Positions 3,485-29,333 of a stretch of DNA of 29,402 bases are shown here, piece after piece (positions within the stretch are counted from its first letter, which is position 1; every line of letters begins with the position of its first letter). The notes beneath the pieces are model-generated. The model was not told where the DNA came from, did no database searches, and worked only from the letters and a program-made list of their open reading frames with translations. The stretch covers positions 1-29,402 of IMG/VR virus record IMGVR_UViG_3300020235_000119; one strand, 5' to 3'. This DNA comes from a virus (lineage: Duplodnaviria > Caudoviricetes). The position numbers and the translations under genes are program-made.

Positions 3485-6400
3485 GCGCCACCGAATATGA
3501 TGTAATGCAAGAAGCGCAAGAGATTCGGCGCAGGAGACTCGATGCGTTGGGTCTTGGGGATCAGTATGACTTGTGGCGTGAATCTTTGCCTAATGGAAGG
3601 GATATGTCCGAACAGGAGGCCCATAATGCCTTCATGGAAGCCCAGGCCATTGAGCAGGCGGCTCTTGATGGGCGTGTCTCCGTGTCCACGGGGGGCGCGG
3701 ACGTGGTACCCACCACCGACATACCGGCCCCGGGTCCCGATGGCCAGGAGACCGGTACCGATGCGCCCGGAGATACCTCGAAAGGCGCTCCCGAGGGTGC
3801 CGGGGACGACACCGGGCGGGATACCGAATTAAAAGCGGTGGAGGGCATGTGGCTCCCACCTGAGGAATCTGAGGCTTTAAATTACATAGAACCTACAACA
3901 GAACAGATGGCCGGTTCACCTGATTGGATCGATAATGCCAAGGTAGTGTGGAAAGCTATGGGGTCCCCTAATCCAGAAAGGGAAAGGATGGAAGTAAGAA
4001 CCACTCCTTGGCTCACGCCTCGTGACGAAATTCCTAAAATTCCCGATATGACCGATCACCAAATCGGTGAATGGGCCAGAAGAGAACTATCCCTGTTCAC
4101 CTGGAACGTGGCTTCGACTATGAGCTATGCTCATAAAATTATGACGTCCGAAGACCCCAAGATGGCGCTCGCTTTTCTGAATTTAATCAGAATGTATGAG
4201 CATTCAGACGGTGGTTCTGTGGAGTTTACCCGAGCGCTTCTTGGTATCGCCACTGATCCTACTACTTATGTCGGTCTAGGTGTTGGTAGTATTGCGGCCA
4301 GAGGAGCAGCTAAAGCTTTAGTAAAATCTGAACTCAAAAAAGCGATCCAAGTGGGCATTATTGGTGCGTCAGCCGGTTCTTTTGAAGGCGGCACACTTGC
4401 AGGTGGATTTGATTTAGTGGTTCAGAATATTGAGCAAGAAGCGGGTGCTCGACAGGACATTGACTATGGTCGAACTGCATTAGCCACTACTATTGGTGTT
4501 GGTGCAGGTACAGCATTGGGCGGTAGTGTCGGTGGTTTGATGGGTCGTCGCATGGATAAAATTGCCGCCATGCATGATGAAATACAAAGACTTGTAGAGG
4601 GTACTAGAATACTTGAGACAGAACGGGTAGCAGCAGGTTTGTCCGTCGATCAAATAACATCATCCCTTAAAGCATCTGCAAGAGCAGCAGCAAGGGCTGG
4701 TAAACAGGATGAATCAGCTGCGATTCTTAATAGGTTTTTTGAGGAGGGCGGTGAATTACCCCGTAACCCAGATGGTACTGTCGATGAAATTGCCCTTTCG
4801 GAAGCGATAAAAGAGTTTCATGATCTTCGAGTAGGAGCCGAACTTACAGCGCAAGAAGAATTGGCCCGGGCAATGGAGCAATTGTATGAGTTAGATAACG
4901 ATTGGATATATGAATGGCAGAATGGTAATTTAGGATACGACACTAAAGACAATCCTGCCATGCGTCCTGCAATCGATAAGGCAGCTAAAGGAACGGGTGT
5001 AAAAGTAATAGATCACCATGAGGGTGTCATTATTGATGGTACCCCAGAACAAAAATTAGCATTTGCCAAGAATATGGCCTCTGCAGAAGGAATATCTTTA
5101 AAACCCATAACTCCGACTGAATTGTTTACTGAAATGAGGGGAGGTCAAACACCAGAGGAGTTTGTGGCTAAAGGCAAACCAAAAGATATGCCGGACGCGG
5201 ATTGGGAATTAATGGTACAATTAGCGGGACCGGAGGCGAGACTCGCAAGCGCATTTGAAAAGTCAGGCTATAATGTAATCGTCAATGTGGATACTGGTGG
5301 TTTAGCCTTCGATAAGCACATGGTAGGTATTAAGGGTGAATATCCGCCCATGACGCAAGCTAATATTGATAAAATCAAGCAAGCTGCCACTAGGGCCGGT
5401 GTAAAGTTTAAAGAATTTGGTCCCTCTGACAAATTTGGAGGATCACCAGAAGGTCATATCGAAATCGATGGCGAACCCACCGAAATGAAAAAATTTATTT
5501 ACAATTTAATCAGTCAACGGGAGAAAATACTTCCAGGCCGATTGGGTGGGAAACCGTTTACAGTAGAAGAAGGCTTGGCGCGTGGTTTGGATGATGAAGC
5601 AATTGCTAAGCTGGAAATGAATCCTATCAATGTTGTGGATAAGTTGGAACGTGCCGGGTTCAAAGTTACACTTAGTGCAGAAGGTGAGGTAGTATTTGAC
5701 GCCACTGGAATGTCTCCAGCAACCACTGAAAGAATTGAGAAGGTTGCTGCACAAACCGGTGTTAAAGCAGAAATTACAGGTGGATTAGAACCTACTAGAC
5801 CAATTTCAGCAGATCGACTTATTGCAGTAGAAGCGCCTGCTCCAACTGATCCGGTGGAAAAAGCATTATATGATGCTTATCGCACTTTGGAAAGAGGGGG
5901 CACAGATGCTGATTTCGATAAAGCCATGCAAAAGTGGCTTAATATGGAGCATGAACGTAGTGGCGGGGAACTTGTCGTTGAGGTTGAAGGAAACGGTGGG
6001 GAATTATATCGTGGCCATGATTTACAGGCAGCGGATAAGGCATGGCGTGTAGCAGACAGAGAAGGTAAATCTCCACGTACTAGCCATACCACAGAACGTG
6101 GGGATTTTGACCCAGCTGAAGCATTCGCACCAGAGGCCACAGGCACTATTAACATTAGTGGTGACCCTGTAGATGTTGCCAGATTCGGTGCTGCAATGGC
6201 CGATCAAGTTACTCCGACTAAGTTGCCCATAGCTGAATCAAGGGCATTTGCCAGACGTATTCTGGAAATGGAGCAAACTTTACAAGATGAGGTTGTAGCT
6301 AAAACTGCCTCATTACCTGGAAGTCTTGTACGTGGCATAGAAAAAGGCACGGAATTCGAGGTAATGGGTCGTACCAAGAATGGTTGGTATCATTTACGGA

Positions 6401-12854: not shown

Positions 12855-12995
12855 GGTCGTAACAAAACTCACCGATAGTTGTGAGATGGTCTTTATCGCG
12901 TACCGCTGCACCAGTATAATAAGTCCATATAACTTGGTGTATTCGCACCATTGCGACACACGGTTCATGTTCACGCATTTGGTCATGGACCCATA

Positions 12996-13493
12996 TTATT
13001 TCTTCTTTATGTGTGACGGCAATATCAAGCCAGAGGATTCTTCCTTGGGGTGACCATTGGACCCTTCGTTTTGAGCTATCAAGTAAATGCTTAGATACTC
13101 CATGAGTTGTTCTATTATTATCTTCTCTTCCCATACTATTATCCCCATATGTAACCAATCTTTTACGTCTTTGGTGTGAACAAGTCCAGGCACATTTGTA
13201 CCGGGTATGAGGCACCACCCTCGCGTTTGTCGTATATACGCACAAAGGAGGAGCCATGGCTGCCCCTTAGCTCTGCAACGCTTACGGAACCACGCCGATT
13301 GGCTAGGTCGTAAGATACATTTCTTTTCAGTTTCGGTATATTTAAGTTCAAGATGATTGCAGTATCCCTCGATACAATAGCTAACATCGGGAGTTCCAAT
13401 TGCCGTTTCATGGGATTCGATCCTTTCAAAATGGCCATAGGGTCTAAGTTTTGGCCCTAGGTAGTCCCACATCTTTGTTTCGCCCTTGCTCAT
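12996..13493 (-). CDS. PD-(D/E)xK nuclease (Holliday junction resolvase / VRR-NUC-like)
   Basis: ERIES..GTPDV...LELK...LRPSQSAW; start chosen at ATG 13493 (MSKGE). Confidence 0.75.
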   Translation of the reverse strand: MSKGETKMWDYLGPKLRPYGHFERIESHETAIGTPDVSYCIEGYCNHLELKYTETEKKCILRPSQSAWFRKRCRAKGQPWLLLCAYIRQTRGWCLIPGTNVPGLVHTKDVKDWLHMGIIVWEEKIIIEQLMEYLSIYLIAQNEGSNGHPKEESSGLILPSHIKKK

Positions 13494-13715: not shown

Positions 13716-14045
13716 TTAATCCTTGTGTTGTAGTACCCCATATTCAAATTTCCACTTGCGAGAGCAGTTTACTATCATTTTTTGGTGGATCGCAATCATT
13801 GGATTGATGCCCGATAGTTCACAAATGTCGAGTGCAAGGATTAGGACGTCGGCTATTTCACCCTCGTCTATTTCTCCGTTCTCCTTCAATGCGCGCCAAA
13901 GTTCTGGAACCTCCTCCATGGAAAGTTTCTTGATCGCGTCTGCTGCAGTTCGTTTTGGCATAATGGTATTAGCCCATTTAAAAATGGCCCTGGAAATTAC
14001 GCACAGGTCCGACTCACTGGCACTTATATATTTCTTATCCATCAT
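13716..14045 (-). CDS. mazZ: MazG-like (DUF550/MazZ) purine dNTP pyrophosphohydrolase
   Basis: EExxEL...EIADVLILALD...KM.VN..RKW matches S-2L MazZ as I recall it; ATGA-coupled downstream of purZ. Confidence 0.85.
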   Translation of the reverse strand: MMDKKYISASESDLCVISRAIFKWANTIMPKRTAADAIKKLSMEEVPELWRALKENGEIDEGEIADVLILALDICELSGINPMIAIHQKMIVNCSRKWKFEYGVLQHKD

Positions 14046-15025
14046 ATTAACCCTATATCCTTATATGCTGGTCCAAATCCGACCCACTTGACGGTGCTCA
14101 TATCGTCGATGTGGGCCACTATGTTTTCCACGTAGTGTTTCTCTACGTAGTTGGCGAAGTTCAAGAAGACTAGATCAGGAGCGCAATGCCAACAAGCCTC
14201 CTCTATCTGCATTTTAGAGTACGTGAAGATGCGCCGCACCCGGTTGGTCACTGTGGTTTTCTCAGGCGTCAAGTCTAAGTCATCCCACGAAAGTTCCTCC
14301 TGATCCGGGTAGCAGTCACCGCTAGTTCCGCCGACTCTAATGGGCAGAGTTCTGCAGGTCCCGATCACCATGCTAAGCATTGGTATCGGTAATCCCATGT
14401 TAGAGAGAAAAGCCGCAGGACCACAATCCCGACTGGTGGTGTAGGGATAGAACTGGGTGTTAATCCCAAGACTGAAGCCCTGCGACCCCTCTGCAAGTAT
14501 GCCACTTGATGATTCAAGTCTAATCTTCCACTCAGGGTGGGTGGCAACGTACTGCTGGTAGGCAGTACCTCTTAAAAAATCCTTAGCAATTGACACTTTA
14601 CCGGATCGCATCATCTTCTCAATCACCGCTGCTGCCGACCCTTGTTTAGTGCTACCGATATGGGTCAGATTTTCTTCTTTCTTTATATGGTTTGCGGTTA
14701 GCACCATTGCATTCGGATGAATACGTAGAGTTTGATCCGATCTAAGATGTACCATTTCCTTTTGGAGTCGATCAAGACTAAACACAGCCCCGGGACCGAT
14801 TAAGATTTGCTTAATACTACGACCCACCGCAGAGCTTGGTAGCACTTTAAAGATGTACTTTTTGCCCTTCTTGTCGATATAAGTATGACCTGCGTTTGGC
14901 ATATTAGCCGTGATGCAGGTATCGTAGTCTCCAGTTTCTCCCAGATACCCGGCAATAAGGCCCTTTCCAGTGCTACCGAATTGTAGATCAACTATCAGGT
15001 CCACTTTCGGTTGTAAACAACTCAT
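14042..15025 (-). CDS. purZ: N6-succino-2-amino-2'-deoxyadenylate synthase PurZ
   Basis: DLQFGSTGKG (Ser replaces the catalytic Asp of PurA GDEGKG), NAGHT, GSTKQG, EGSQG, YPYTTSRD, PIRVGG, TTVT, NFANY. Colinear with phiVC8 PurZ as I recall it. Start placed at ATG 15025. Confidence 0.95.
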   Translation of the reverse strand: MSCLQPKVDLIVDLQFGSTGKGLIAGYLGETGDYDTCITANMPNAGHTYIDKKGKKYIFKVLPSSAVGRSIKQILIGPGAVFSLDRLQKEMVHLRSDQTLRIHPNAMVLTANHIKKEENLTHIGSTKQGSAAAVIEKMMRSGKVSIAKDFLRGTAYQQYVATHPEWKIRLESSSGILAEGSQGFSLGINTQFYPYTTSRDCGPAAFLSNMGLPIPMLSMVIGTCRTLPIRVGGTSGDCYPDQEELSWDDLDLTPEKTTVTNRVRRIFTYSKMQIEEACWHCAPDLVFLNFANYVEKHYVENIVAHIDDMSTVKWVGFGPAYKDIGLI

Positions 15026-17192
15026 GCTTCGGGACTTTGTACATCCATCTTCTTGCCCCTCCCCCTTCCGGTCTCGGTCTATGCTTATCAAACCCATAAC
15101 TCTCTACCTTTCTGTAAAAGTGTGCAACCCCCTTAGATCGTAGCCCTTTCTGATTACTGAGCCACGTGTCATAAGCCTCAAATAATGCCATCCTGTCAAC
15201 GTTCGATGGCCAACCTCCCATACCTTCTTCATCGATGCAGCCTAATTCTGCTTTGGCTATGCACCTGTCCATCCAAATGTCCACCGAATCTCCAGTGGAT
15301 TTGTATATTTGTCTTTGTGTTATCAGCCCTCTTGTCACGATAGCCTTGGTTAGATTACTCTTAATCTTCCGTGTCTGGAGGTCAAACATCATTGCAGCTA
15401 GCCCCCCATTATCGAGCATTTGGTCATAGAGTTTAGTGAAATAGCGCCTGTCATTTGCGTACTTGTTGCTGACCTCCAAAACGAGCCAGCGCCTGGATTC
15501 CGGCCCAGCAGGTATGAACCACTCCTCGTTAGAGGCTACGGCAAGCCGAATCCGACTATCGCACATGAAGGGATCAATACCCTTTGGCTCACACACCATT
15601 TCCTTCTCAGTGACCATAGACTTGATTATGCCTCTTGTTTGTCTATCCCCACCGTAGATTACCTCGTCCGCGAACACCAATAGGGCATCCATTAAGAGTT
15701 TATTGAAATTTCCAGTAAGGTGCCGTGGGTTGGTTACATGTTTATAGTGTGCCTTACCTACGATCCCGCCCACCATTTCACAGAAAGTCCCCTTTCCAAT
15801 ACCCTCCTCCCCGTGCATTACAATCGCGGTGCCCTTTGGTGTCATTGGGTCCTGGATTATGTCAGCTACCCAATCGAGGACGAAATCATGTAGTTCCTCA
15901 TTGTCCTCGCACAGTACCTCCTTGATGTGGTTGTTAAATAGGCTCCAGTCCCCCTCCTCTGGTTTGACCCCCCAACCTTGCCACAGATTAACATAGCTAT
16001 CGTGCCATAACCCTTCATCTGGAAAGAAGCCCATACCCCTTATACATTCACGCCGGTCTGGGTGGGCCATCCAAATGTCAGCCTCAGTTGGCGTCTTGCC
16101 TTTCTTTAGAGGAACTGATACCTTGCGATTATACATCAGAGTATTGAAATCTTGGGTGCCCATTATGTGGATTCCGCCCACCTTGTCCCGATGTACGATT
16201 CGTATCTTACCTCCGGTCAGGAGTACGGCATTGTCCTCATTCATAGCCGTTACCAAGTCGATATAATCCCCGGCCCTTGCTGGATCACTTGATGGGTCAT
16301 ACCCGCCTTCTTTAGCGAAATAGATAAGACTTCCAATTCTTATACTGCCCGCTGGGTTGAAACCAGGCCAACGCTTCTCGCATTCGCCAGCTATATAACG
16401 ATCCCCGGTAGCAGACCATGTATCCCATAACTGGAGACCATCATTACCAGGGTGCTGTGAGTTAATTGCCTGTCCAGCATATAGCCATTCTTCGTACGAT
16501 AGAACGTTGGCGTCAATGTGGTCCAGCATAGCAGCAATTTGGCTGGTGCTATACTTGAATTCCTCGTCATCTTGCCCAACCTCCTCGTTACCACGCCCTG
16601 GTTTAGAGGCCCAAGGTACCCCCATAATGTCACTAACCCACTCAGGTGTTTCGGGTATGTCACCCCCTTCTATCCATTGGTAGGTTCCATCCTCGGTCTG
16701 GGAGGGCCAAGCTACGATATGGGACCGGGGCTGTCCGTCACCGCCACGGGTATCGACACCACGGGCGAGTTTCCCGGAGCTACTCGTGAGGTTCTCCCGC
16801 CATTGGAGCAACATATGGCGACCGCCCGTGGGGGTTTTCTGGATAGGGCAGTTTAGCTCTCTGCCACCAGCAAGCTCCGTCCAGTGTTCGATCCCATTTT
16901 CCCGACCATGTAGGTCTAAATCGATGGCGAACAAGTCCTCTCCACAAGGTATCCCGATGTTCCATCCCCGGTATCTCCCTCTTTCCCCGAACCACTTATC
17001 CATGGTTTTGGGTTTGATCGTCCTTGAAAAGTAATTAATGCCGGTTTTGCGCTCCGGTAAAATCTTACTGCCGGGGCGCAATGGAACTATAGCTATACCT
17101 TGCTGCACGTACATTAGCGCGGCTTGATGAATCTTTGTCTCAAAGTCTTTAATCCGGTCGATTTCCCGGATATCGTTCATTGGTAATAACAC
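14988..17192 (-). CDS. Prim-Pol primase + PriCT-2 + SF3 helicase fusion
   Basis: NIGI/AIDLD/TPTGGRH Prim-Pol motifs; YEEWL..G.A...LWDTWS PriCT-2; Walker A GEEGIGKGT; Walker B VFADE. Confidence 0.9.
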   Translation of the reverse strand: MLLPMNDIREIDRIKDFETKIHQAALMYVQQGIAIVPLRPGSKILPERKTGINYFSRTIKPKTMDKWFGERGRYRGWNIGIPCGEDLFAIDLDLHGRENGIEHWTELAGGRELNCPIQKTPTGGRHMLLQWRENLTSSSGKLARGVDTRGGDGQPRSHIVAWPSQTEDGTYQWIEGGDIPETPEWVSDIMGVPWASKPGRGNEEVGQDDEEFKYSTSQIAAMLDHIDANVLSYEEWLYAGQAINSQHPGNDGLQLWDTWSATGDRYIAGECEKRWPGFNPAGSIRIGSLIYFAKEGGYDPSSDPARAGDYIDLVTAMNEDNAVLLTGGKIRIVHRDKVGGIHIMGTQDFNTLMYNRKVSVPLKKGKTPTEADIWMAHPDRRECIRGMGFFPDEGLWHDSYVNLWQGWGVKPEEGDWSLFNNHIKEVLCEDNEELHDFVLDWVADIIQDPMTPKGTAIVMHGEEGIGKGTFCEMVGGIVGKAHYKHVTNPRHLTGNFNKLLMDALLVFADEVIYGGDRQTRGIIKSMVTEKEMVCEPKGIDPFMCDSRIRLAVASNEEWFIPAGPESRRWLVLEVSNKYANDRRYFTKLYDQMLDNGGLAAMMFDLQTRKIKSNLTKAIVTRGLITQRQIYKSTGDSVDIWMDRCIAKAELGCIDEEGMGGWPSNVDRMALFEAYDTWLSNQKGLRSKGVAHFYRKVESYGFDKHRPRPEGGGARRWMYKVPKHELFTTESGPDS

Positions 17193-20952: not shown

Positions 20953-20983
20953 AGTATACCACGGACCCCGGGGGGTCTGTCAA
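20953..20983 (-). promoter_or_regulatory. Sigma70-type promoter with 19-bp spacer and dyad
   Basis: TTGACA GACCCCCCGGGGTCCGTGG TATACT. Confidence 0.8.
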
Positions 20984-20991
20984 GTCCTGGT

Positions 20992-21114
20992 TTATGACAA
21001 AGCTTCTATCATTTTCTTATAAAATTCCTCCGCTCGCTTTTGTAACTTTAATGCGTACTTATGATTCCACTTAGCAACACGTGCTCGAACTTCAGTTGCG
21101 GTCATATCTTTCAT
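20992..21114 (-). CDS. 40-aa basic helical protein (MKDMTATEVRARVAKWNHKYALKLQKRAEEFYKKMIEALS)
   Basis: Missing from the ORF track; ATGA overlap with the helicase stop; GAGG SD; fills the gap exactly. Confidence 0.65.
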   Translation of the reverse strand: MKDMTATEVRARVAKWNHKYALKLQKRAEEFYKKMIEALS

Positions 21115-22565
21115 GATAAAGCTTCCTCTACTTCTTCTGCTAAATTTCGTTTCTTACGGATTGCCCGCAAGATCATCTTATCTTCTGGTACAGCCATTTC
21201 AATGTCTTGGTACGTAACGTGATTATGTTGCCCTTTTCTATGAGCGCGATCTTCCGATTGGTACCTATCCTCGTATGAAAATGAGTTGGAATAGTAGATA
21301 ACGTAAGTTGCAGCTGTCCAAGTCTGTCCATACCCGCCGACCGTTTGATTAGAGACGATAAAACGGCACGTGGGGTCTCCTTGGAAACGGCGCACATTTT
21401 CGATACGTGCCTCATTATCGGTTGCGCCATAAAATTCCACACTTGCATCTCTTCCGTACTCGGCGTCAAGGGCCTCTCTAATATATCCAATTTCTGGTGT
21501 AAACCTAGCCCATATGATAACTTTGGTACTTTCCGCCAGTCCACTTATCAACTCCTTCATTTCATCGATTTTTGGGTTCCCACCGGGGATAGGTTTAGTA
21601 TCGTATTCCCCTTCAATTTCAAATGGGAACGATCCCCCTATGACCTGTTGATACCTCATCATTCTTTCGAGCACTGTGCTCACGGTGATTTCATCATCAC
21701 CGTCCTGCATGGCGTATTCCTGCTTAAGTTGCGTCATCACTCGTTTCTGATTATCTGTGGGTTGCACAATAACTGTAGCAGGGTAAAGTTTGTCTGGTAG
21801 GTCCAGGCATTCCTCTTTGGTGACATAATCTACATAGGGGCGGATTTTATCGAACAGGTGTTCCTGAAATTGATATCCCATGATTTGTTTAGCCCGGAAT
21901 CCACCCATCACGCAGTATTTGTTTTTAAAGACGGTGAAATTTCTGCATCCGACGATGTTCTCGTTCAGGAATCTGAATTGCCCGAAGAGGTCTTCCAAAC
22001 CTTGAGTAACCGGGGTCCCGGTCAGGATCATTCGGTATTTTGCCCATCCCCCGACTTTGATAACGTTTTTGGTCCGGATGGCTTTGTAATTTTTAATTCT
22101 TGATGATTCGTCGACAACGCACATGAATCGGTGAAATCGCTGGAAATATTCCAGTGCTTGCATAGAGCGTCCATTCTCGATGGATAATGACTCGACACCG
22201 AAGATGAAGATTTTAAGTTCATCGCGTTTTTCCCTACTCCATATTGAAGGCTGGTCGCCCGAAGCATAAACCCAGCATGAATAATCGACAGGGCACCACT
22301 TCTCGATTTCAGAACCCTGTAATTCACCAGCCTCATTGAGCCAGGTACCTTCCCCGGTATACCAAACATTTTTGATGGGAGTGGGGCAGATTATTATAAG
22401 AGCGTTTATTAAGTCCGCTTTATAACGTGCTGCGGCTAAATTGATTGCAGTATAACTTTTTCCTGTTCCCATTTCATGGAACAGAGCAAATTCTTTGAGT
22501 TTCCAAGCCTTCCGCAGGGCCACCGTTTGGTGGCCCATTGGAGGGTGCTTGAACTCGAAGGCCAC
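21111..22565 (-). CDS. SNF2-family (SF2) helicase
   Basis: HEMGTGKS, VVDES, LTGTP, QSEDRAHRKGQ motifs; GTG start. Confidence 0.9.
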   Translation of the reverse strand: MAFEFKHPPMGHQTVALRKAWKLKEFALFHEMGTGKSYTAINLAAARYKADLINALIIICPTPIKNVWYTGEGTWLNEAGELQGSEIEKWCPVDYSCWVYASGDQPSIWSREKRDELKIFIFGVESLSIENGRSMQALEYFQRFHRFMCVVDESSRIKNYKAIRTKNVIKVGGWAKYRMILTGTPVTQGLEDLFGQFRFLNENIVGCRNFTVFKNKYCVMGGFRAKQIMGYQFQEHLFDKIRPYVDYVTKEECLDLPDKLYPATVIVQPTDNQKRVMTQLKQEYAMQDGDDEITVSTVLERMMRYQQVIGGSFPFEIEGEYDTKPIPGGNPKIDEMKELISGLAESTKVIIWARFTPEIGYIREALDAEYGRDASVEFYGATDNEARIENVRRFQGDPTCRFIVSNQTVGGYGQTWTAATYVIYYSNSFSYEDRYQSEDRAHRKGQHNHVTYQDIEMAVPEDKMILRAIRKKRNLAEEVEEALS

Positions 22566-23033
22566 TTACGCGGCTTTCGCTTTGCCTTTTTCTTCCTTGG
22601 CCTTGGCCTCTGCTTTCTTGGCTGCTTCTGCAGCCTTGTTAGCTTTGGTTTTGGCCCGGGCAATTGTTGCCACACGGGGTTTCTCGCAAGCTACCTCAAG
22701 CAGCTTGGCACCGCTTGCCCGACTTTTGTCCTTTTCCCGGGCTTTGTCAGCTTTGGCGATTGCACCACGAATCCGGTTACCCAGATTCATCCGCTGCATG
22801 CCGACGTTCAGGTGATCGTACTTGGCATGAAACTCCTTGGCCGGAGTATCAGTCATTACCTGTGCCACCGCGTACACTTCGTCGAGCGTGAACCCGTCAA
22901 GTGCAATAGCGGTAACATCGTTGGTCCGCATGGTTTTCTTGCCTGAACCAGATACGCCTTTCACGTATTTGGACAGGTCCGGTTTTACCCGCACTTCTTT
23001 CGGTGCGTCCGTTCCTTCTTTCGCGTTTGCCAT
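22566..23033 (-). CDS. Uncharacterised 'RMNxGNxIRG' protein with K/A-rich tail (paralog B)
   Basis: AAGGAG SD; core aligns by eye with 27795..28196. Confidence 0.8.
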   Translation of the reverse strand: MANAKEGTDAPKEVRVKPDLSKYVKGVSGSGKKTMRTNDVTAIALDGFTLDEVYAVAQVMTDTPAKEFHAKYDHLNVGMQRMNLGNRIRGAIAKADKAREKDKSRASGAKLLEVACEKPRVATIARAKTKANKAAEAAKKAEAKAKEEKGKAKAA

Positions 23034-23059
23034 TAGTTTCTCCTTCTGGCGTTGTGGTT

Positions 23060-23132
23060 AAAAAAATGGAGGCTCCAGCTGCGACAACTAAGAAACGCAA
23101 GCAGTAGATTATAAATCTCTAGCCCCCACCGT
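23060..23132 (-). ncRNA. Putative ~73-nt structured leader or sRNA ending in U7
   Basis: GGTGGGGGCT pairs with AGCCTCCATT, enclosing two inner hairpins; begins at the predicted +1 of promoter 23139-23169. Confidence 0.45.
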
Positions 23133-23138
23133 ACCCCT

Positions 23139-23169
23139 AGTATATCATGCTACCCATGGGGTCTGTCAA
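23139..23169 (-). promoter_or_regulatory. Sigma70-type promoter with 19-bp spacer and dyad
   Basis: TTGACA GACCCCATGGGTAGCATGA TATACT. Confidence 0.8.
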
Positions 23170-23177
23170 GCCCTGGT

Positions 23178-23387
23178 TTACTCGACGCGCCAAATGCGCC
23201 CTTTTCCTTTTTCCCATCTTTGGCAATATCGCGTACCGTTTCTTCTGCCGTACCTTCTTGAGGCAAAACCGGCTTTATCGAAACCTTCTCTTCCACCGGT
23301 TGTGGCAAATGAATCACCGACTTTCATATCCTTCCATGGATATTTGTCACCGGACGGTATTGGTACTTTCTTTTCTACGTCATACAT
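23178..23387 (-). CDS. Small basic putative DNA-binding protein
   Basis: VEK.VPIP...KYPW..M.VGDSF...G.RIWR pattern of a widespread phage family; AAGGAGG SD (alternative GTG start at 23390). Confidence 0.7.
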   Translation of the reverse strand: MYDVEKKVPIPSGDKYPWKDMKVGDSFATTGGREGFDKAGFASRRYGRRNGTRYCQRWEKGKGRIWRVE

Positions 23388-23410
23388 CACTTCCTCCTTC
23401 TGGCGATTTA

Positions 23411-24166
23411 CTATCCTTTCCAGTTACTAAACTCCTTATAAACAGCACTGTACGATGTATCAACCACGTGTGCTAGGTTATCATCATCGCCAGCTTCCTC
23501 CAACCATTGCGTTCTTATTGCCATGAGCGTGTCTGGGTGACTAGGGCATTGTGGGTCTGGGTCCATTCCCAGGATTACGTAGTGCCCCTCTATTCCCTTA
23601 ATCCCCTGTTCCAGTACATGATCAACTCGATGTGCCAAGTTTAATTGTACCAGCGAGTTTATGGGAACGTTGGGTGGTTCATGCTTGGACTTGCCACTCA
23701 ATACCAGTCCTTTCTTGCTGGTTCCTTTTACCCTGGCCCGGGTTTCTTCCACCGTTGGTGGGTCCCCTTTATCGATGCGCTCTTCGACCCATTGTATGTC
23801 CTCGGGTTCTGCGAGCACAAGTTCTTGAATAACGGAAAAATTTATCCCGTCGATGAGTTTGGAGGCGTCTCCAAATCGCTTAGCCACTTGCATGAGGTAA
23901 TGGGCATGTTGCTTCGATTGGATCATGGTGTTTTCTTTACGCCACGTTCCAAACTCTTTATCAACATGAAAGAATTGACGCGCTTCTAATAGAAGCTTGC
24001 CTACCCTTATCTTACCTCTGGCGACACTCTTTACTGTGGAATCGATTGTCTTATCGATATCTTTCGCAATCCCTACGAGTTGTTTCAGTCCTGCGGCATC
24101 GATTCCCTCGTGCCATTTGCCGTGACCAGCTATGGGTTCTAATGAACCCGCTGGTGTGGTTGTCAT
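23411..24166 (-). CDS. DUF3102-like putative DNA-binding protein with J-domain-like C-terminus
   Basis: VGKLLLEAR....EFGTW..E......AHYLMQVAKRFG; C-terminal HYVILGM...GDD......SY..V. Confidence 0.65.
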   Translation of the reverse strand: MTTTPAGSLEPIAGHGKWHEGIDAAGLKQLVGIAKDIDKTIDSTVKSVARGKIRVGKLLLEARQFFHVDKEFGTWRKENTMIQSKQHAHYLMQVAKRFGDASKLIDGINFSVIQELVLAEPEDIQWVEERIDKGDPPTVEETRARVKGTSKKGLVLSGKSKHEPPNVPINSLVQLNLAHRVDHVLEQGIKGIEGHYVILGMDPDPQCPSHPDTLMAIRTQWLEEAGDDDNLAHVVDTSYSAVYKEFSNWKG

Positions 24167-24170
24167 GTTT

Positions 24171-24365
24171 TCATTTAGCTCCTTCTAGATTGAGAAACAC
24201 GGCGTCCTCGATTTGCTTGATCAAGTCGTCGGGTCTCGTTACGTGGGCACCGCCCACTTTGGTCAGGGAAAGACGGATTATCTTCACCTGTTTGAAAGTT
24301 TCAACACCCCGGAGGGCTACGATTATCTCGTAACCCTCAATTGGCCCCAGCTTATTATCGCTCAT
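24171..24365 (-). CDS. Hypothetical early protein
   Basis: ATG 24365 overlapping the upstream gene; packed in the operon. Confidence 0.55.
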   Translation of the reverse strand: MSDNKLGPIEGYEIIVALRGVETFKQVKIIRLSLTKVGGAHVTRPDDLIKQIEDAVFLNLEGAK

Positions 24366-24657
24366 TCGCACGTTTTTCCTTGTGGATCTTGTAGGTTGAT
24401 TTGATTACGTCCACAATCATCTCTTCCATCTTATCCAGGAAGTCGGGTCCCGGACTGTGTCTATGGTTGAATTGAATAGCGTAATCATCGATTGCCAATT
24501 GGCAAATAGACTTCATAACAAGAAGAGTTATGACTGGATTTATGTTCAGGTCCTGCGATCTTGCGATCGCATTCCCTACCATTGACTTTGCAATTACCTC
24601 GGCATCCACAAGGGACTCCGAGAGTTTTGCAACTGCCAAGTTCTCTATTCGGTTCAT
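24355..24657 (-). CDS. Hypothetical early protein, 100 aa
   Basis: ATG 24657 after ACAGGAG SD. Confidence 0.65.
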   Translation of the reverse strand: MNRIENLAVAKLSESLVDAEVIAKSMVGNAIARSQDLNINPVITLLVMKSICQLAIDDYAIQFNHRHSPGPDFLDKMEEMIVDVIKSTYKIHKEKRANER

Positions 24658-24673
24658 GCTTGACTCCTGTTTG

Positions 24674-25072
24674 TTATTCGCACACCGTTTCGTAAATGTC
24701 AATTTCCCGGGTCTCCGTGCCAATTTTGATTCGGGTGCATTTGGTCGACGAGAAACTGAGCCAGAATCTGGCATTTTCTGTCGGGTGCTCCCAATGGCAA
24801 GTAAACGACGATTCAGGCTCATTACCCGGGCGGCTAGTGGGTTCGTAGCCCAACTTACGAAAGACCGAGAAGATTGCATTCAGTACGTGTTTATCTCCCG
24901 AAATGAAAAGATCAACACACTCCCCGCAGAGTTCCGCTCCGTTGATGTCTATCTTGCTCAACCCTGTGGCAATCCGGCCTATTTCAACCTTGTTGGCGTG
25001 ATACCAACTGGCTTGTTTGGTCAGCGTTTCCGATTCGCGTACCATTTTCTCCTTCAACTGCTGTGTGAACAT
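24674..25072 (-). CDS. Hypothetical early protein, 132 aa
   Basis: ATG 25072 after ACAGGAG SD. Confidence 0.7.
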   Translation of the reverse strand: MFTQQLKEKMVRESETLTKQASWYHANKVEIGRIATGLSKIDINGAELCGECVDLFISGDKHVLNAIFSVFRKLGYEPTSRPGNEPESSFTCHWEHPTENARFWLSFSSTKCTRIKIGTETREIDIYETVCE

Positions 25073-25130
25073 TTTAAGCTCCTGTGGGATGATTCCCAGG
25101 TTGCCCCCTCGTTGAAGGGACAACCAGCGA

Positions 25131-25313
25131 TCACACCTTCTTGTAGACATTCAGGCCGATCATTATGTCTTCCGCGCCTGGGACTCGGGCGTTACCCCGG
25201 GTCGTTGCGATTACCTGTGATTTCTGGGATTTGCTAAGCCCCAGATTCTCGTTAAGGTTCACCACAATTGTGAGGATTCCCTCTCTTACCTTCATTTCGC
25301 AGTTCTCTGGCAT
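25131..25313 (-). CDS. Conserved 60-aa beta-rich protein
   Basis: LTI.V.L....G.SKS.KS..IATT.GN..V......IGLNVY pattern; AAGGAG SD; first gene after promoter 25351-25379. Confidence 0.75.
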   Translation of the reverse strand: MPENCEMKVREGILTIVVNLNENLGLSKSQKSQVIATTRGNARVPGAEDIMIGLNVYKKV

Positions 25314-25350
25314 TACAGTCTCCTTCCCCGGACCCCCCGGGGGTATGCCC

Positions 25351-25379
25351 ATTGTAGCACAGGCGCGGCCCCCTGTCAA
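25351..25379 (-). promoter_or_regulatory. Early sigma70 promoter, 17-bp spacer
   Basis: TTGACA GGGGGCCGCGCCTGTGC TACAAT (TGn extended -10). Confidence 0.85.
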
Positions 25380-25387
25380 GCCCTAGT

Positions 25388-25477
25388 TTACGACCAAAAC
25401 CACGGAATCATGTTAATTAGAACTAAAACGGCAAGAATAATCCAAATGGTTCGTGTTGTGGTTGGATGATATTGCAT
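25388..25477 (-). CDS. 29-aa single-TM peptide (MQYHPTTTRTIWIILAVLVLINMIPWFWS)
   Basis: Missing from the ORF track; starts 1 nt after the upstream stop and fills the gap exactly. Confidence 0.55.
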   Translation of the reverse strand: MQYHPTTTRTIWIILAVLVLINMIPWFWS

Positions 25478-25478
25478 G

Positions 25479-25667
25479 TTAGCCCGGTTCGACCGTGTAT
25501 TTGAAATCCGCTGTTCTAAACGGTCCGTTTCTCACTCTGTTGTTATGGTCCGCTATTTCCTGTGCGCCCGCTTTAGTTGCATAATACTGCACAACTCCTC
25601 TTTCCTTCATATAGGATTCTCGGGTTCCTGTTACCCCGCCGCTTACGCGGCATTTTATTCTATACAT
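25479..25667 (-). CDS. Hypothetical early protein, 62 aa
   Basis: ACAGGAGG SD. Confidence 0.7.
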   Translation of the reverse strand: MYRIKCRVSGGVTGTRESYMKERGVVQYYATKAGAQEIADHNNRVRNGPFRTADFKYTVEPG

Positions 25668-25678
25668 GTTGCCTCCTG

Positions 25679-26017
25679 TTAGCCGTGGAAGAATTTAATC
25701 AATAACTCCGGGGCGGGCCATTCCATGTAACCCAGTGGGTCCCCAGTTTCTTCATCTTCCGCTTGAAACCACTCCTTGACGTCTTCATCGGTTAGTGGTT
25801 GCATTCCATCGAGCGTGTAATACGCCCAATCCTTTACCGTGTAGGTCATTACCATGTCTTCTGCCATTTGGTAAGCGGTGTACCAACGTGCGTCCGCTTC
25901 ATAATCGCGTTCATAAGGCTTCCCATCCCGGCCAATAAAGTCGATTCCCGTGAGGGATTCCTTTATATGTTCGGCCAATTTGGTGATGTTCGGCCCCGTT
26001 TGGGGTTTCTCACTCAT
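25679..26017 (-). CDS. Acidic, aromatic-rich early protein
   Basis: ACAGGAG SD; D/E- and W/Y-rich. Confidence 0.7.
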   Translation of the reverse strand: MSEKPQTGPNITKLAEHIKESLTGIDFIGRDGKPYERDYEADARWYTAYQMAEDMVMTYTVKDWAYYTLDGMQPLTDEDVKEWFQAEDEETGDPLGYMEWPAPELLIKFFHG

Positions 26018-26029
26018 TTCTAGCTCCTG

Positions 26030-26299
26030 TTAGTGTAGCTTCTGCATTTCTTCCTCTGAGAGTTCTGACCTCAGTGCGTTATCAATGAACCCAAACAGTA
26101 GGCCGAGTTCTCTACAAGCTTCCTCGTATTCCTGTGGGCTTACTTCAGATGGGTTCGTGCCTGTTAGAACTTCGAACACGTACCCGTTTGTTTTCAGGGT
26201 TGCATGTAACACGGAGAGAAGAACAAAGGAATCAATTTGTACTGTTTCCTGCTCCCCTTCCGCGTCGTTTGCTAACCCCACGATTACCGTGAGTTTCAT
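26030..26299 (-). CDS. Acidic early protein, 89 aa
   Basis: AGGAG SD. Confidence 0.7.
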   Translation of the reverse strand: MKLTVIVGLANDAEGEQETVQIDSFVLLSVLHATLKTNGYVFEVLTGTNPSEVSPQEYEEACRELGLLFGFIDNALRSELSEEEMQKLH

Positions 26300-26307
26300 G
26301 TTATCTC

Positions 26308-26550
26308 CTATTTGTTAAATTCCCTGATCTTCTCCAGGGTTGCTGCTACTTCCTCTATGTATTCCTCGTGGAATTTCACCTCGTCTGGAATGAGGTCTCG
26401 TTTCGTGTCTATCAAGCTGTCTAGCTGGTTATCTAGTGCTTCCACTATGATTGCCAACTCGTGGCTTTCGAGTTCTGTATAAACACGTCCGTCCGGAACT
26501 GGCCCGTCCAACACGCTCAGAACTACGTGCATTTCTTCCATTGTTGTCAT
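26308..26550 (-). CDS. Acidic early protein, 80 aa
   Basis: GAGG SD; ATGA overlap with the upstream gene. Confidence 0.7.
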   Translation of the reverse strand: MTTMEEMHVVLSVLDGPVPDGRVYTELESHELAIIVEALDNQLDSLIDTKRDLIPDEVKFHEEYIEEVAATLEKIREFNK

Positions 26551-26711
26551 CTTCCTACCTCTTCTAGTAGTTTCTCTAGTTCAATTGTTTCGTCCCGGGT
26601 CCAGGTTTCAAACTCCTCGCAACCTGTCCACTCGTCCATTCCGAGTATTCGGTCCATTTCTATTGCCATGTTTAGCAACGCCCGAAGGAACTTAATTTGC
26701 CGTTGCGTCAC
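26547..26711 (-). CDS. 54-aa acidic early protein (MTQRQIKFLRALLNMAIEMDRILGMDEWTGCEEFETWTRDETIELEKLLEEVGR)
   Basis: Missing from the ORF track; GTG start with AGGGG/AGGA SD; its stop overlaps the next ATG. Confidence 0.65.
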   Translation of the reverse strand: MTQRQIKFLRALLNMAIEMDRILGMDEWTGCEEFETWTRDETIELEKLLEEVGR

Positions 26712-26871
26712 GTTCCTGCCCCTGTTTAGCGTATTTGTGTTTGATGCGCTTCACGTGGCGTTCGTGCCGCGCCTGCGCTGTTATCGTCTTCCGACAGAAT
26801 CCGGGGTTCGAGTTGCAGAATTGCTGAATCTCGCCCTCGGTCGTGTTGTGTGTGATGTTCAGATGGTTCAT
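26692..26871 (-). CDS. 59-aa early protein (MNHLNITHNTTEGEIQQFCNSNPGFCRK...)
   Basis: Missing from the ORF track; ACAGGAG SD; ATGA overlap. Confidence 0.6.
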   Translation of the reverse strand: MNHLNITHNTTEGEIQQFCNSNPGFCRKTITAQARHERHVKRIKHKYAKQGQERDATAN

Positions 26872-27032
26872 TGTTGTGCTCCTGTGTTACTCGCTTCTGT
26901 TTGCGAACCTGCGGCCCCATTCCCGTCCAACCCGCAATGCGGGCAGTATTCGGGGTATGTTTCCTCGTCGTGTTCAAGAACGCCGCTCGCGCCGCAGTTC
27001 TCACATTTCAAGATTGTATGCCATTTCGACAT
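26868..27032 (-). CDS. 54-aa zinc-ribbon protein (CENC...CPHC)
   Basis: Missing from the ORF track; ACAGGAG SD; first gene after promoter 27084-27112. Confidence 0.7.
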   Translation of the reverse strand: MSKWHTILKCENCGASGVLEHDEETYPEYCPHCGLDGNGAAGSQTEASNTGAQQ

Positions 27033-27083
27033 TTCCTGTCTCCTGTGTTGCGAAACCCGACCGGGGGGCCGGGGCGCACCCCC

Positions 27084-27112
27084 ATTATAACACAGGCGGG
27101 CTGCGCTGTCAA
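27084..27112 (-). promoter_or_regulatory. Early sigma70 promoter, perfect consensus, 17-bp spacer
   Basis: TTGACA GCGCAGCCCGCCTGTGT TATAAT. Confidence 0.9.
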
Positions 27113-27159
27113 GCCCTAGTTGCCTCTGCCCAGAAGAGCCGCGTGATAAATAAATTACG

Positions 27160-27275
27160 AGCGAGACCGGTCCCGCTCAGAAGGCGTGTGATTGATTCTC
27201 GAACTTGGGAATAATCCCCTCAACGTGTCTCTTGCCGCTGAGGGCAACTGAGGAGAAGGACCAGCGAGACCGGTC
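27160..27275. repeat. 13-bp direct repeat AGCGAGACCGGTC x2 (contains palindrome GACCGGTC)
   Basis: Copies at 27160-27172 and 27263-27275. Confidence 0.7.
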
Positions 27276-27567
27276 TTGATGATGTTCTGTGTTTCAGGCC
27301 CCGTCGTTCGGGGCGGGTCTCCGTGGTCTTCCTGGTCCTTCTTTTTAAGAACTAGAGAGAAGAGAGAAGAGAGGGGGGTGTATTCGCGCAGGAAGGGATC
27401 CCCCCTCGCCGCTGGGTTACGGATGCGTCGCCCGAGAAGGACCATATAAGGAGTCGCTCCCCGCTAATGGGTTGGCGAACACCGGTGCCTCCGTCTGCGG
27501 TTGTCGCTCTGCTTCCCTAGTTCCATTGGTCCGCTTCTGATTCCCGGGGCCGGGGGAACTTGTTCGC

Positions 27568-27652
27568 AAGTCCACTTCCTAAGTCGTCGTCGTGCTGAAT
27601 GTGTTCCCAAGTCCACTTTGCAAGCCATTCAGGTTCCGTGGGAAGTCCACTT
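27568..27652. repeat. AAGTCCACTT x3 (dyad AAGT-NN-ACTT)
   Basis: Copies at 27568, 27609 and 27643. Confidence 0.75.
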
Positions 27653-27764
27653 CAAAACTCGTTCCCTCGCCCGGGCGCGGGCGAAACGTGTCTCCGAAAG
27701 TTGCCCGCTCTCCCTCCTCCTGTGACCGCATCTCAGGTAGCGTGGTTCCCAACTGTTCGAGATT

Positions 27765-27786
27765 GGCCCCGGGTTGCCCCGGGGCC
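27765..27786 (-). terminator. GC-rich hairpin 3' of paralog A
   Basis: GGCCCCGGG-GCAA-CCCGGGGCC, 8 nt after the stop; no clear U tract. Confidence 0.5.
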
Positions 27787-27794
27787 GTTCCCCG

Positions 27795-28196
27795 TTAGCT
27801 CGGCGTGTTCAGTGCCTTGCTAACGTCCAACAGCGCATCCTTGACCTGTTGTAGCGTCGTGTTGCGCCGTACGCAGCCCCGGATGATGTTCCCTGCGTTC
27901 ATCCGTTTCGCGCCTTGGTTCCGGTTGGCGTACCTTGCGGTCAGCGTTCCCGGCTCCAGTCCCTTAAGCTTCTCAGCTGCCGTCATCACGGCTTCCGGAC
28001 TGGCCCCTCGTAGGGCAAGAGCGACTTCGTCGTTGTTGTCCATACTCAGGTTCCCGTTGGCGGTCTGGTACGTCGTGTACCGGGCCTTGTACAACCGGAG
28101 CTGTTCTGACTTGCTCCGTTTGGGCGTCCCGTCGACTTCCGTCTTGGGTTGCTCTTCCGCTTTCCCCTGCGGCTCGGGTTGCTTCGCTTTGGCCAC
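27795..28196 (-). CDS. Uncharacterised 'RMNxGNxIRG' protein (paralog A), 133 aa
   Basis: GTG 28196 after AGGGGA SD; NDEVALALRG...Y...N.G..RMNAGNIIRG aligns with 22566..23033. Confidence 0.75.
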   Translation of the reverse strand: MAKAKQPEPQGKAEEQPKTEVDGTPKRSKSEQLRLYKARYTTYQTANGNLSMDNNDEVALALRGASPEAVMTAAEKLKGLEPGTLTARYANRNQGAKRMNAGNIIRGCVRRNTTLQQVKDALLDVSKALNTPS

Positions 28197-28288
28197 TTGC
28201 GTGTCCCCTGCGTTGCACCTGCCGGGACGCGGGATTGCGCCCCGGTCCGGCGACCAGCGACGCGTCGTGCTGCGCCGCCAGCACCCCC

Positions 28289-28317
28289 AGGGTAGCACAG
28301 CCGAGCCGCCGACGCAA
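28289..28317 (-). promoter_or_regulatory. Degenerate early-class promoter, 17-bp spacer
   Basis: TTGCGT CGGCGGCTCGGCTGTGC TACCCT GGGGGTGC; shares the CTGTGY and GGGGGTGC flanks of promoter 27084-27112. Confidence 0.55.
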
Positions 28318-28415
28318 GTCCGGCGTCGGCGATGCATCGCGCAAGATGCGCGCCCGCAACGCGAGCGCGTCGCGCTCGCCGCGCCTGCGACGCAGCGCCG
28401 AGCCGGGTCGCCTTG

Positions 28416-28501
28416 CGCGCCCGGTATACACCATGCGCGACGCGCTCGGTATTAACCGCGTGTGTACGCGCCCGGTTCCAACAGCAGGGGGGTACACCCC
28501 C
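28416..28501. repeat. CGCGCYCGGT x3 plus G5/C5 inverted repeat; candidate packaging or terminus signal
   Basis: Copies at 28416, 28441 and 28467; GGGGG-GTACA-CCCCC at 28487-28501; lies between divergent promoters upstream of terS. Confidence 0.5.
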
Positions 28502-28617
28502 AACCCAGCGGCGCGTTCCACGTTTATGGGGGTTCCACGCGCCCTCGACCTCAACTCGCTGCGCGCCATTGCCGATTCTTCTTTTTTTCCGCGCATGCGC
28601 GTGTAGGGAACGGGGGG

Positions 28618-28648
28618 TTGACAGACCCCCCTGGGGGTGTGGTATACT
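28618..28648 (+). promoter_or_regulatory. Late sigma70-type promoter with 19-bp spacer and dyad
   Basis: TTGACA GACCCCCCTGGGGGTGTGG TATACT. Confidence 0.8.
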
Positions 28649-28763
28649 CTCGGGATGCGCGACTCATTCTTTCGAGACCTGCCGCCTTTAACGGTGACAG
28701 AAGTTATCGAGCCTCTGAATCTGGAGGAGCGCACCTTTATACTCAATCAAAGGATGATTGAAA

Positions 28764-29333
28764 TTGGCCGAGCAAGGGTTAGTTCAGACAACAGAATCGT
28801 CGCAATTAAGCGAGTTCGAACAATTAGAGAAAACGCTCGATCCGCAGCGTAGGTTGTTCTGTTTTGAATACCTAGTCGACTTTGATCATCGTCGAGCGGC
28901 CACTGTTGCCAAACTTTCCGCAGATTCCGGTATCCGACTTCTTCGGAACCCAGACATATCCAAATTCATTAAGCTTCTCACTGACGAGTTGGCTCATGAA
29001 TCCCTTATATCCAGGGATATGGTCCAGTATGAACTTCTCCATGAGTTTCTACCCCGGGCTAAGGGTGAAATGGATGTTGTTGGTGTCGACCGGGATGGTG
29101 TTGCATGGTCCGGGAAGGTCACTAATATGGCCGCACATGCGAAAGCCATTGATCTAATGGCAAAACATAGTGGGTTCACGGTTCCAGAAACTGTTAAAGG
29201 CGGTCTCACGATCAATATAAATCATGAGGCCATGGGTATAACTATTGACGGACACTCAGTGGAGATAACTAATGAACAAAGTGGCGAACAAGTTGAAGAA
29301 GAAAGTCTTAGCCAAGAGGAAGGCGCAGGCTGA
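28764..29333 (+). CDS. terS: Terminase small subunit
   Basis: L.PQRRLFC.EYLVDFD..RAA..A......G.RLL.NP.I HTH and KAIDLMAKH.G; TTG start (28764 or 28758) after AAGGA. Confidence 0.85.
   Translation: MAEQGLVQTTESSQLSEFEQLEKTLDPQRRLFCFEYLVDFDHRRAATVAKLSADSGIRLLRNPDISKFIKLLTDELAHESLISRDMVQYELLHEFLPRAKGEMDVVGVDRDGVAWSGKVTNMAAHAKAIDLMAKHSGFTVPETVKGGLTININHEAMGITIDGHSVEITNEQSGEQVEEESLSQEEGAG

Follow-up and report, generated by a model that had tools for sequence, protein, structure and literature searches.

Middle and late promoters with 19-bp spacers and an internal C-run/G-run dyad in a phiVC8-like purZ podophage

Results

Promoters and genes of the phage stretch

The DNA studied here, referred to as the window (29,402 nucleotides), comprises positions 1–29,402 of the viral record IMGVR_UViG_3300020235_000119 and covers most of a phage that protein matches and gene order affiliate with the phiVC8-like purZ podophages. 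Leftward, it carries early open reading frames (ORFs), followed by genes for a SNF2 helicase, Pam3 gp33- and gp34-like proteins, SSB, PolA, Prim-Pol and PurZ and a MazG-like gene, and the opposite strand holds terS plus tail and internal virion genes. This study concerns three promoters of the window whose −35 and −10 elements lie 19 base pairs (bp) apart and whose spacers each contain a C-run followed by a G-run, here called the dyad.

The sequence TTGACA-N19-TATACT occurs exactly at 20953–20983 (minus strand, promoter M2), 23139–23169 (minus strand, M1) and 28618–28648 (plus strand, L1), as the initial annotation of this DNA had proposed, and none of 100 dinucleotide shuffles of the window yields any such match. 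Fourteen copies of TTGACA are present in the window, five of which are followed by a consensus-like −10 element, with a spacing of 19 bp in three cases and 17 bp in the other two. The assignment of downstream genes also held: M2, with a TGn-TATACT −10 region, lies upstream of the gp33-like, gp34-like, SSB, PolA, Prim-Pol and purZ genes, M1 upstream of a PHROG-8941 gene (paralogue b) and the SNF2 helicase gene, and L1 upstream of a conserved 65-aa ORF plus the terminase small subunit gene terS (28655–29333, plus strand) and the structural operon. A public independent assembly (run X6) also covers M2 and L1, and none of its contigs departs from them by more than one substitution or gap.

All three spacers open with GACCCC, again as annotated. 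The 14-bp dyad of M2 (20964–20977) has the top position weight matrix score in the window (20.8), with six of seven pairs matched and a central CC unpaired. In M1 (23150–23163) the symmetric part is the 8-bp core CCCATGGG only, and the dyad of L1 (28624–28637) is a C-run/G-run. The claim of a dyad in every spacer thus stands for the C-run/G-run arrangement, whereas perfect symmetry is confined to M2.

The early promoters have 17-bp spacers, as had been claimed. E1 (27084–27112, minus strand) is a perfect consensus promoter, E2 (25351–25379, minus strand) reads TTGACA/TACAAT, and E0 (28289–28317, minus strand) is a degenerate TTGCGT-17-TACCCT. All three spacers end in CTGTGY, which had been taken for an early-specific element. 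However, a TG at −15/−14 is found in 69/69 promoters of the clade and in 42/42 early promoters, and CTGTGY in just 17/42 of the latter. CTGTGY is a family-wide extended −10 rather than an early-specific box.

Spacer length and dyad are coupled across relatives

A motif search for relatives returned 13 viral and 25 metagenome stretches. The metagenome stretches L075, L078 and L083–L085, as well as L092, have no dyad and seem unrelated, and L069, L071, L072 and L076 correspond to the window and so carry no independent weight. Further genomes came from protein searches, which are independent of the motif; the genomes with 19-bp promoters were found first by motif and later recovered by the protein searches as well. 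The main count set holds 15 genomes or contig sets, namely the window and 14 relatives.

Promoter positions are constant in the relatives: several lie in the early region, M1 precedes PHROG-8941b, M2 precedes gp33 and L1 precedes terS. A fourth promoter, L2, lies outside the window in front of the major capsid gene and has a 19-bp spacer with the dyad in G001, G002, G003, L005, L090 and L077. A CxxCxxCC ORF in G001 (L098:18183–18443) and G002 (L100:19168–19413) has its TGA stop within the TTGACA of the capsid promoter. The early promoters have 17-bp spacers in 41 of 42 cases, the remaining one being 18 bp. The 45 middle/late promoters fall into 22 with 17 bp, nine with 18 bp and 14 with 19 bp, and all 45 have a TATACT −10 element whatever their spacer length, compared with 4/42 early promoters. 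Within this motif-independent set, the core CCC-NN-GGG is present in 14/14 middle/late promoters with 19-bp spacers and in 0/31 with 17–18 bp.

Orthologues of M2 have 19 bp in G001, G002, L073 and L086, and 17–18 bp in G310, G311, G313, G314, G315 and G316; L1 has 17, 18 or 19 bp. In G002, a small-ORF cassette (L100:12268–14100) lies between the 18-bp L1 and terS and includes a Tad2-like anti-Thoeris protein (12859–13083). Promoters with 19-bp L1 spacers occur on both flanks of the terS tree (split 86/87) and the gp34 tree mixes the classes, with moderate support, so that the promoter class behaves as a property of the genome and not of the gene. A scan of 27 of the 64 parts of IMG/VR for generic 19-bp TG-TATACT promoters (84 distinct spacers) revealed no further clade with the dyad, two of the spacers being from clade members. 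Conservation of the 19-bp spacing among related genomes holds in one branch and fails in its sisters. Judged from these comparisons, the 19-bp dyad class arose locally, within a single branch of uncultured relatives.

A further spacer motif has been homogenised within the family. In G315, three 18-bp middle/late promoters (L304:328, 5533 and 13808) carry G[A/G]GTACCT, as does one in G003 (L102:10621), and this set appears to be a parallel promoter class. In more distant PHROG-8941 phages (L028, L035, L045, L047, L051 and PMBT28, L096), the consensus promoters are 17 bp and their spacers share motifs particular to each genome, for example GGTAT..TACC and GGGCCCCAACC.

Anatomy of the spacer dyad

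The 21 distinct 19-bp spacers have the consensus G-A-C-C-C-C-[C/A]-[C/T/G]-G-G-G-[G/T]-N-S. Taking the −10 element as −12 to −7, with an assumed transcription start site, the dyad is centred between spacer nucleotides 7 and 8, that is at −25/−24. Best-centre pairing in the 19-bp class is 5.2, compared with 3.9 after shuffling, and none of 1000 shuffles reaches 5.2; in the early, 17-bp and 18-bp classes pairing is not above that of shuffles. The inner pairs of the dyad hold in 20/21, 21/21 and 17/21 spacers. Nucleotides 1–6 and 9–11 are near-fixed and nucleotide 13 and the flanks are variable, while TTGACA is perfect in all 21 promoters, so the −35 element is likely still used. The M1 orthologue of G001 is a different, perfect 14-bp palindrome with changes on both sides. 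Within one genome, the first 12 nucleotides of different 19-bp promoters agree at 9.7 positions (15 pairs), compared with 6.2 for other pairs (35).

The base at −17 is C in 8/14 of the 19-bp promoters and T in 22/22 of the 17-bp promoters, giving the former a weaker TRTG. Calculated from step values, the summed B-form twist amounts to 671° as opposed to 608°, leaving about 63° uncompensated. Outside the extended −10, the 19-bp spacers contain about three A/T positions. A C-run at nucleotides 7–9 is present family-wide, and since it is ancestral, spacers could readily have lengthened by slippage. An inverted repeat around the −10 element was also considered; it occurs in single promoters and is absent as a class signal.

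Dyad-like copies outside the class

The initial annotation placed further operator copies at two early promoters. A dyad copy does cover +1 of E2 (25331–25344), and it is kept in 7/7 clade genomes that cover the site. The same stretch (25326–25344, minus strand) is predicted to form a 6-bp 5′ RNA hairpin (25342–25326) directly before the Shine–Dalgarno sequence, with an energy of −12.7 to −14.3 kcal/mol, which also explains the copy; similar folds are found in other early leaders. The dyad-like stretch at the −10 of E0 (28282–28295) is present in the window and in none of the other E0 regions examined (1/16). Early promoters generally have a G-run 3′ of the −10 and GC-rich 5′ hairpins, and on this comparison the stretch consists of a −10 that has decayed, together with the usual G-run, and its reading as an operator is not supported.

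Candidate regulators

The best-placed candidate regulator is a DUF3102-like ORF of 251 aa (23411–24166, minus strand), which lies towards the end of the early genes, adjoins M1 and is the last early gene in most relatives. Its predicted structure (predicted local distance difference test, pLDDT, 82; predicted TM-score 0.45) shows a 40-residue N-terminal helix followed by helix-turn-helix (HTH)-like helices; Foldseek found no PDB match for the model, and the Atlas ties the ORF only to DUF3102/DUF1016_N. The PHROG-8941 paralogues rank second as candidates. Paralogue b (155 aa; 22566–23033, minus strand), a candidate DNA binder, combines a β-hairpin, a helical core and a Lys/Ala tail, and its model (pLDDT 88) has as best fold match a death-domain/SAP-like helical structure (Z 6.7, not significant). 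Paralogue a, likewise a candidate DNA binder, is the first early gene (27795–28196, minus strand; GTG start inferred from relatives). Genes of the b type usually have a promoter just upstream. PDB sequence searches with both candidate alignments gave nothing under E 5, and the models of 8941b and the DUF3102-like ORF, the two proteins folded in looking for a MerR winged-HTH regulator, gave no significant match.

The DUF3102-like ORF and 8941b are the genes whose identity tracks promoter class best, with 67–78% identity in 19-bp genomes compared with 45–59% in others for the former, and 72–85% compared with 55–65% for the latter; linkage and kinship would also explain this tracking. A search of the DUF3102-like ORF for clade-specific residues gave three columns of weak signal, all outside the HTH-like part. 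The PHROG-8941 b-type proteins share a near-invariant NVGMQRMNLGNRIR helix (NVGMQRMNLGN) across podo- and siphophages with unrelated spacers, which counts against 8941 reading a clade-specific site.

Bacterial look-alikes

The strict phage pattern has no match in 185,579 prokaryote genomes, and a looser pattern finds 13 loci, mostly in gut-type Firmicutes and before unrelated genes. In five Oscillospiraceae-type genomes (L247, L249, L251, L252 and L259; position 2001–2031), a conserved and perfect TTGACA-19 bp-TATAAT promoter with a C-run/G-run spacer precedes gdhA, and no regulator was seen within 2 kb. In an evenly drawn sample of 301 Clostridia genomes, the core is present in 2/666 of the 19-bp matches, seed included, many matches being due to chance according to a reversed-pattern control, and in three 17-bp matches, whose total was not counted. 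Thus, there is no general C/G-tract shape rule. The only non-seed Clostridia 19-bp promoter with the core directly precedes a MerR-domain gene, a single case that links core and register to a gene of the MerR type. This 19-bp CCC-NN-GGG promoter (L260:1005–1035) lies immediately upstream of a MerR-HTH/FGGY-kinase fusion (5–991), and a similar promoter (L248:2001–2031) precedes a plain FGGY kinase gene in another genome; the two possibly form one MerR-type regulon.

Other features of the window

The PurZ-type synthetase (14042–15040, minus strand) is 54% identical to PurZ of phiVC8 (PHROG 1211, E 3e-79) and shares the motifs QFGSTGKG and FLNF-NY with it. Genes for a PurZ synthetase and a family A polymerase (PolA), the gene combination expected of a Z-genome, are both present, and the phage DNA probably contains 2-aminoadenine (Z). 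General protein scans showed no datZ in the window. Scans of sets of 38 and 28 proteins gave no match to an RNA polymerase, sigma factor or integrase, and neither an integrase nor a repressor was seen within the window.

An internal virion protein of 1859 aa with a long uncharacterised central part is encoded at 3481–9060. The non-coding stretch 27180–27790, 3′ of 8941a, contains three AAGTCCACTT repeats (27568, 27609 and 27643), purine tracts and an 18-bp inverted repeat, next to a terminator-like hairpin (27158–27179, minus strand), and is a possible origin or packaging site. Between the divergent E0 and L1, the very GC-rich stretch 28330–28600 has a perfect 14-bp inverted repeat (28362–28375/28435–28448) and is a possible genome end.

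Discussion

RNA polymerase (RNAP) holoenzyme tolerates spacers of 17 ± 1 bp, and 28 MerR-regulated promoters all have 19–20 bp; the operator of BmrR is centred at −24 (PMC7722741). The phage promoters have both features of the MerR type, a 19–20-bp spacer and a palindrome that fills it and is centred near −24. We tentatively propose, while rating it at somewhat less than an even chance, that a phage-encoded protein outside the MerR family binds the spacer dyad and boosts the 19-bp promoters by distortion. The promoters before the replication, helicase, packaging and capsid genes would be of the host sigma70 type, and the bound protein would kink the spacer, realigning the −35 and −10 elements, so that these genes are boosted once the early genes have been made. 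Such a protein would act as a booster above a basal level provided by the extended −10 and by read-through from early promoters, not as an on/off switch, and the copy at +1 of E2 may allow it to damp one early promoter. A spacer-reshaping protein accounts better than drift for the fixed register, the exact length, the kept −35 and the conservation of particular positions. In a bolder form, a protein of unrelated fold, DUF3102-like or PHROG-8941, would have invented distortion activation independently in a lytic phage branch: two added spacer bases would have made constitutive sigma70 promoters a MerR-style regulon, with the replication and virion genes turned on and an early promoter repressed through the +1 copy. 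This scenario strikes us as rather doubtful.

Several observations weigh against an activator acting through the dyad. No MerR gene was found with hidden Markov models (PF13411/PF00376) in any of five records at E ≤ 10; these records are 29–85% complete, and G001 and G002 cover the part missing from the window. Hence, the system is MerR-like in geometry and is not classed as a MerR system. No gene confined to the 19-bp clade was found either: the ORF E3 (26692–26871) seemed restricted to 19-bp genomes as a clade-specific activator and was rejected when homologues appeared in L017 and L112. The candidates share their putative recognition helices with 17-bp relatives. Sister phages that have these core genes too show 17–18 bp at the same sites, G003 is mixed (L1 17, M1 18, L2 19), and L1 of G002 has 18 bp. 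G313, a genome without 19-bp promoters, has a full GACCCC/GGGGTG dyad in the 18-bp promoter that precedes 8941a, its first early gene (L302:6291–6320), and a partial dyad in its 17-bp M2. The outer dyad pairs are mirrored in 14/21, 6/21 and 8/21 spacers, and 7/21 of the distinct sites come only from a search in which GACCCC was fixed. The 19-bp genomes are closely related, so that the counts reflect few independent events. Moreover, Klein et al. report that consensus promoters with spacers of 15–19 bp reach high expression in E. coli, where no activator is involved (PMC8695583), and M1 and M2 lie within a co-directional gene run with a single weak terminator-like hairpin. Of the MerR-like logic first suggested for this DNA, what persists is the geometry, the coupling of dyad and length and the lack of a MerR gene, and the searches yielded no regulator; the accompanying idea of an on/off switch that replaces a phage RNAP is weakened by the 17–18-bp sisters, the extended −10, the activity of consensus 19-bp promoters and the co-directional run.

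The strongest alternative requires no protein. C-run slippage may have lengthened an ancestral GC-rich spacer from 17 through 18 to 19 bp, with recombination between the repeated promoters spreading the change. Constitutive activity, though of a different strength, would be maintained by the A-like C/G tract together with the extended −10 and supercoiling. The graded spacer lengths, the family-wide C-run at nucleotides 7–9 and the parallel 18-bp class of G315 are all in line with such tuning, as are the gdhA look-alikes and the empty regulator search in the phage. In addition, poly-dG tracts tend towards A-form (PMC3902906), and in E. coli TG or TGTG damps the output of consensus 17-bp promoters, those with 19 bp being highly active (PMC8695583). 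However, tuning leaves the B-form twist uncompensated and does not account for near-fixed nucleotides 1–6 and 9–11 beside a free nucleotide 13. The AT centre in M1 interrupts the tract, the palindrome of G001 is compensated, and the core is not enriched among the Clostridia 19-bp matches. We regard protein-free tuning as possible, if on balance unlikely.

Alternatively, the dyad could be the operator of a phage repressor that exerts feedback or dormancy control over the replication and virion genes, the long spacer merely damping them. Copies at repressing positions, at +1 of E2 and in the 18-bp early promoter of G313, would suit a repressor, and there is precedent in CsoR-type repressors that recognise G/C-tract palindromes (PMC3902906) and in the MerR-like Gp36, which acts as a repressor in the lytic phage D29 (PMC12266134). 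Yet repression would work without a fixed register or a length of exactly 19 bp, both of which hold in 14/14 promoters, and the +1 copy can also be explained by a 5′ RNA hairpin, which makes an operator of this kind improbable to our minds.

A host MerR-type or CsoR-type regulator that reads the dyad, and thereby couples phage development to a host signal, seems less probable still. The phage has no MerR gene of its own and bacterial 19-bp promoters with the C/G core exist, one of them directly before a MerR-domain gene, but the strict pattern is absent from the prokaryote genomes searched and the loci found with the looser one precede unrelated genes. Finally, the proposal that 19-bp spacing compensates the helical geometry of 2-aminoadenine DNA, prompted by purZ and PolA, can be set aside with near certainty, as the same DNA carries 17-bp early promoters, the purZ relatives and the cultured phages phiVC8, ZP6, K294, BUCT555 and PMBT28 have 17 bp (rarely 18) at middle/late genes, and the 19-bp spacers contain so few A/T positions.

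Within the branch, orthologous promoters with spacers of 17, 18 and 19 bp form a natural series. Should activation through the dyad prove to be the work of a phage protein, that protein would be a distortion activator outside the MerR family and a compact orthogonal switch, and DUF3102 or PHROG-8941 would gain a function. Should the promoters work unaided, a C/G tract would be enough to permit a 19-bp spacer, which would amount to a promoter-design rule.

Comparison with known systems

The phage class resembles MerR-family promoters (Pbmr/BmrR, CueR, SoxR and MerR) in its 19-bp spacer, near-consensus hexamers and spacer palindrome near −24 (PMC7722741). Unlike those promoters, it belongs to a phage without a MerR-family gene, has an extended −10 TG in every copy and is reliably symmetric in only the inner three to four pairs; it precedes a set of developmental genes instead of a stress operon. 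With the operators of CsoR and RcnR it shares a palindromic C-tract/G-tract core of A-like character (PMC3902906). The TAC/GTA flanks required by CsoR are missing from the spacer copies, however, whose left flank is GAC in 20/21 and GCA in 1/21, CsoR is a repressor without a spacer rule, and no CsoR-like match was found in the phage.

Among close relatives, phiVC8, ZP6, K294 and BUCT555 share the gene order of the phage and carry TTGACA/TRTGn/TATAAT-type promoters at the corresponding genes, but with 17-bp spacers (two at 18) and no dyad. Transcript maps of phage K and a Pseudomonas phage show no such promoter class in the portions available (PMC11598898, PMC10914365). Our literature search, with subscription journals and supplements outside its coverage, found no description of the class, and the papers it returned do not describe gene timing in RNAP-less phiVC8-like Z-phages.

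The mom promoter (Pmom), controlled by the Mu C protein, has a 19-bp spacer. At Pmom, a phage protein unwinds out-of-phase elements for late transcription by host RNAP (PMC4461284), which is what we propose here. Whereas the Mu C site lies upstream of or overlaps the −35 of non-consensus promoters (PMC4461284), the phage site is inside the spacer behind a perfect TTGACA, and no match to a Mu C homologue was found in the phage. Mu C (PMC4461284) and D29 Gp36 (PMC12266134) are the nearest phage precedents. Gp36 differs in its MerR-like fold, its direct repeats and its role as a repressor without long-spacer promoters, and it resembles the proposed phage counterpart in being a small regulator of a lytic phage that acts at GC-rich sites and tunes both early and late genes (PMC12266134).

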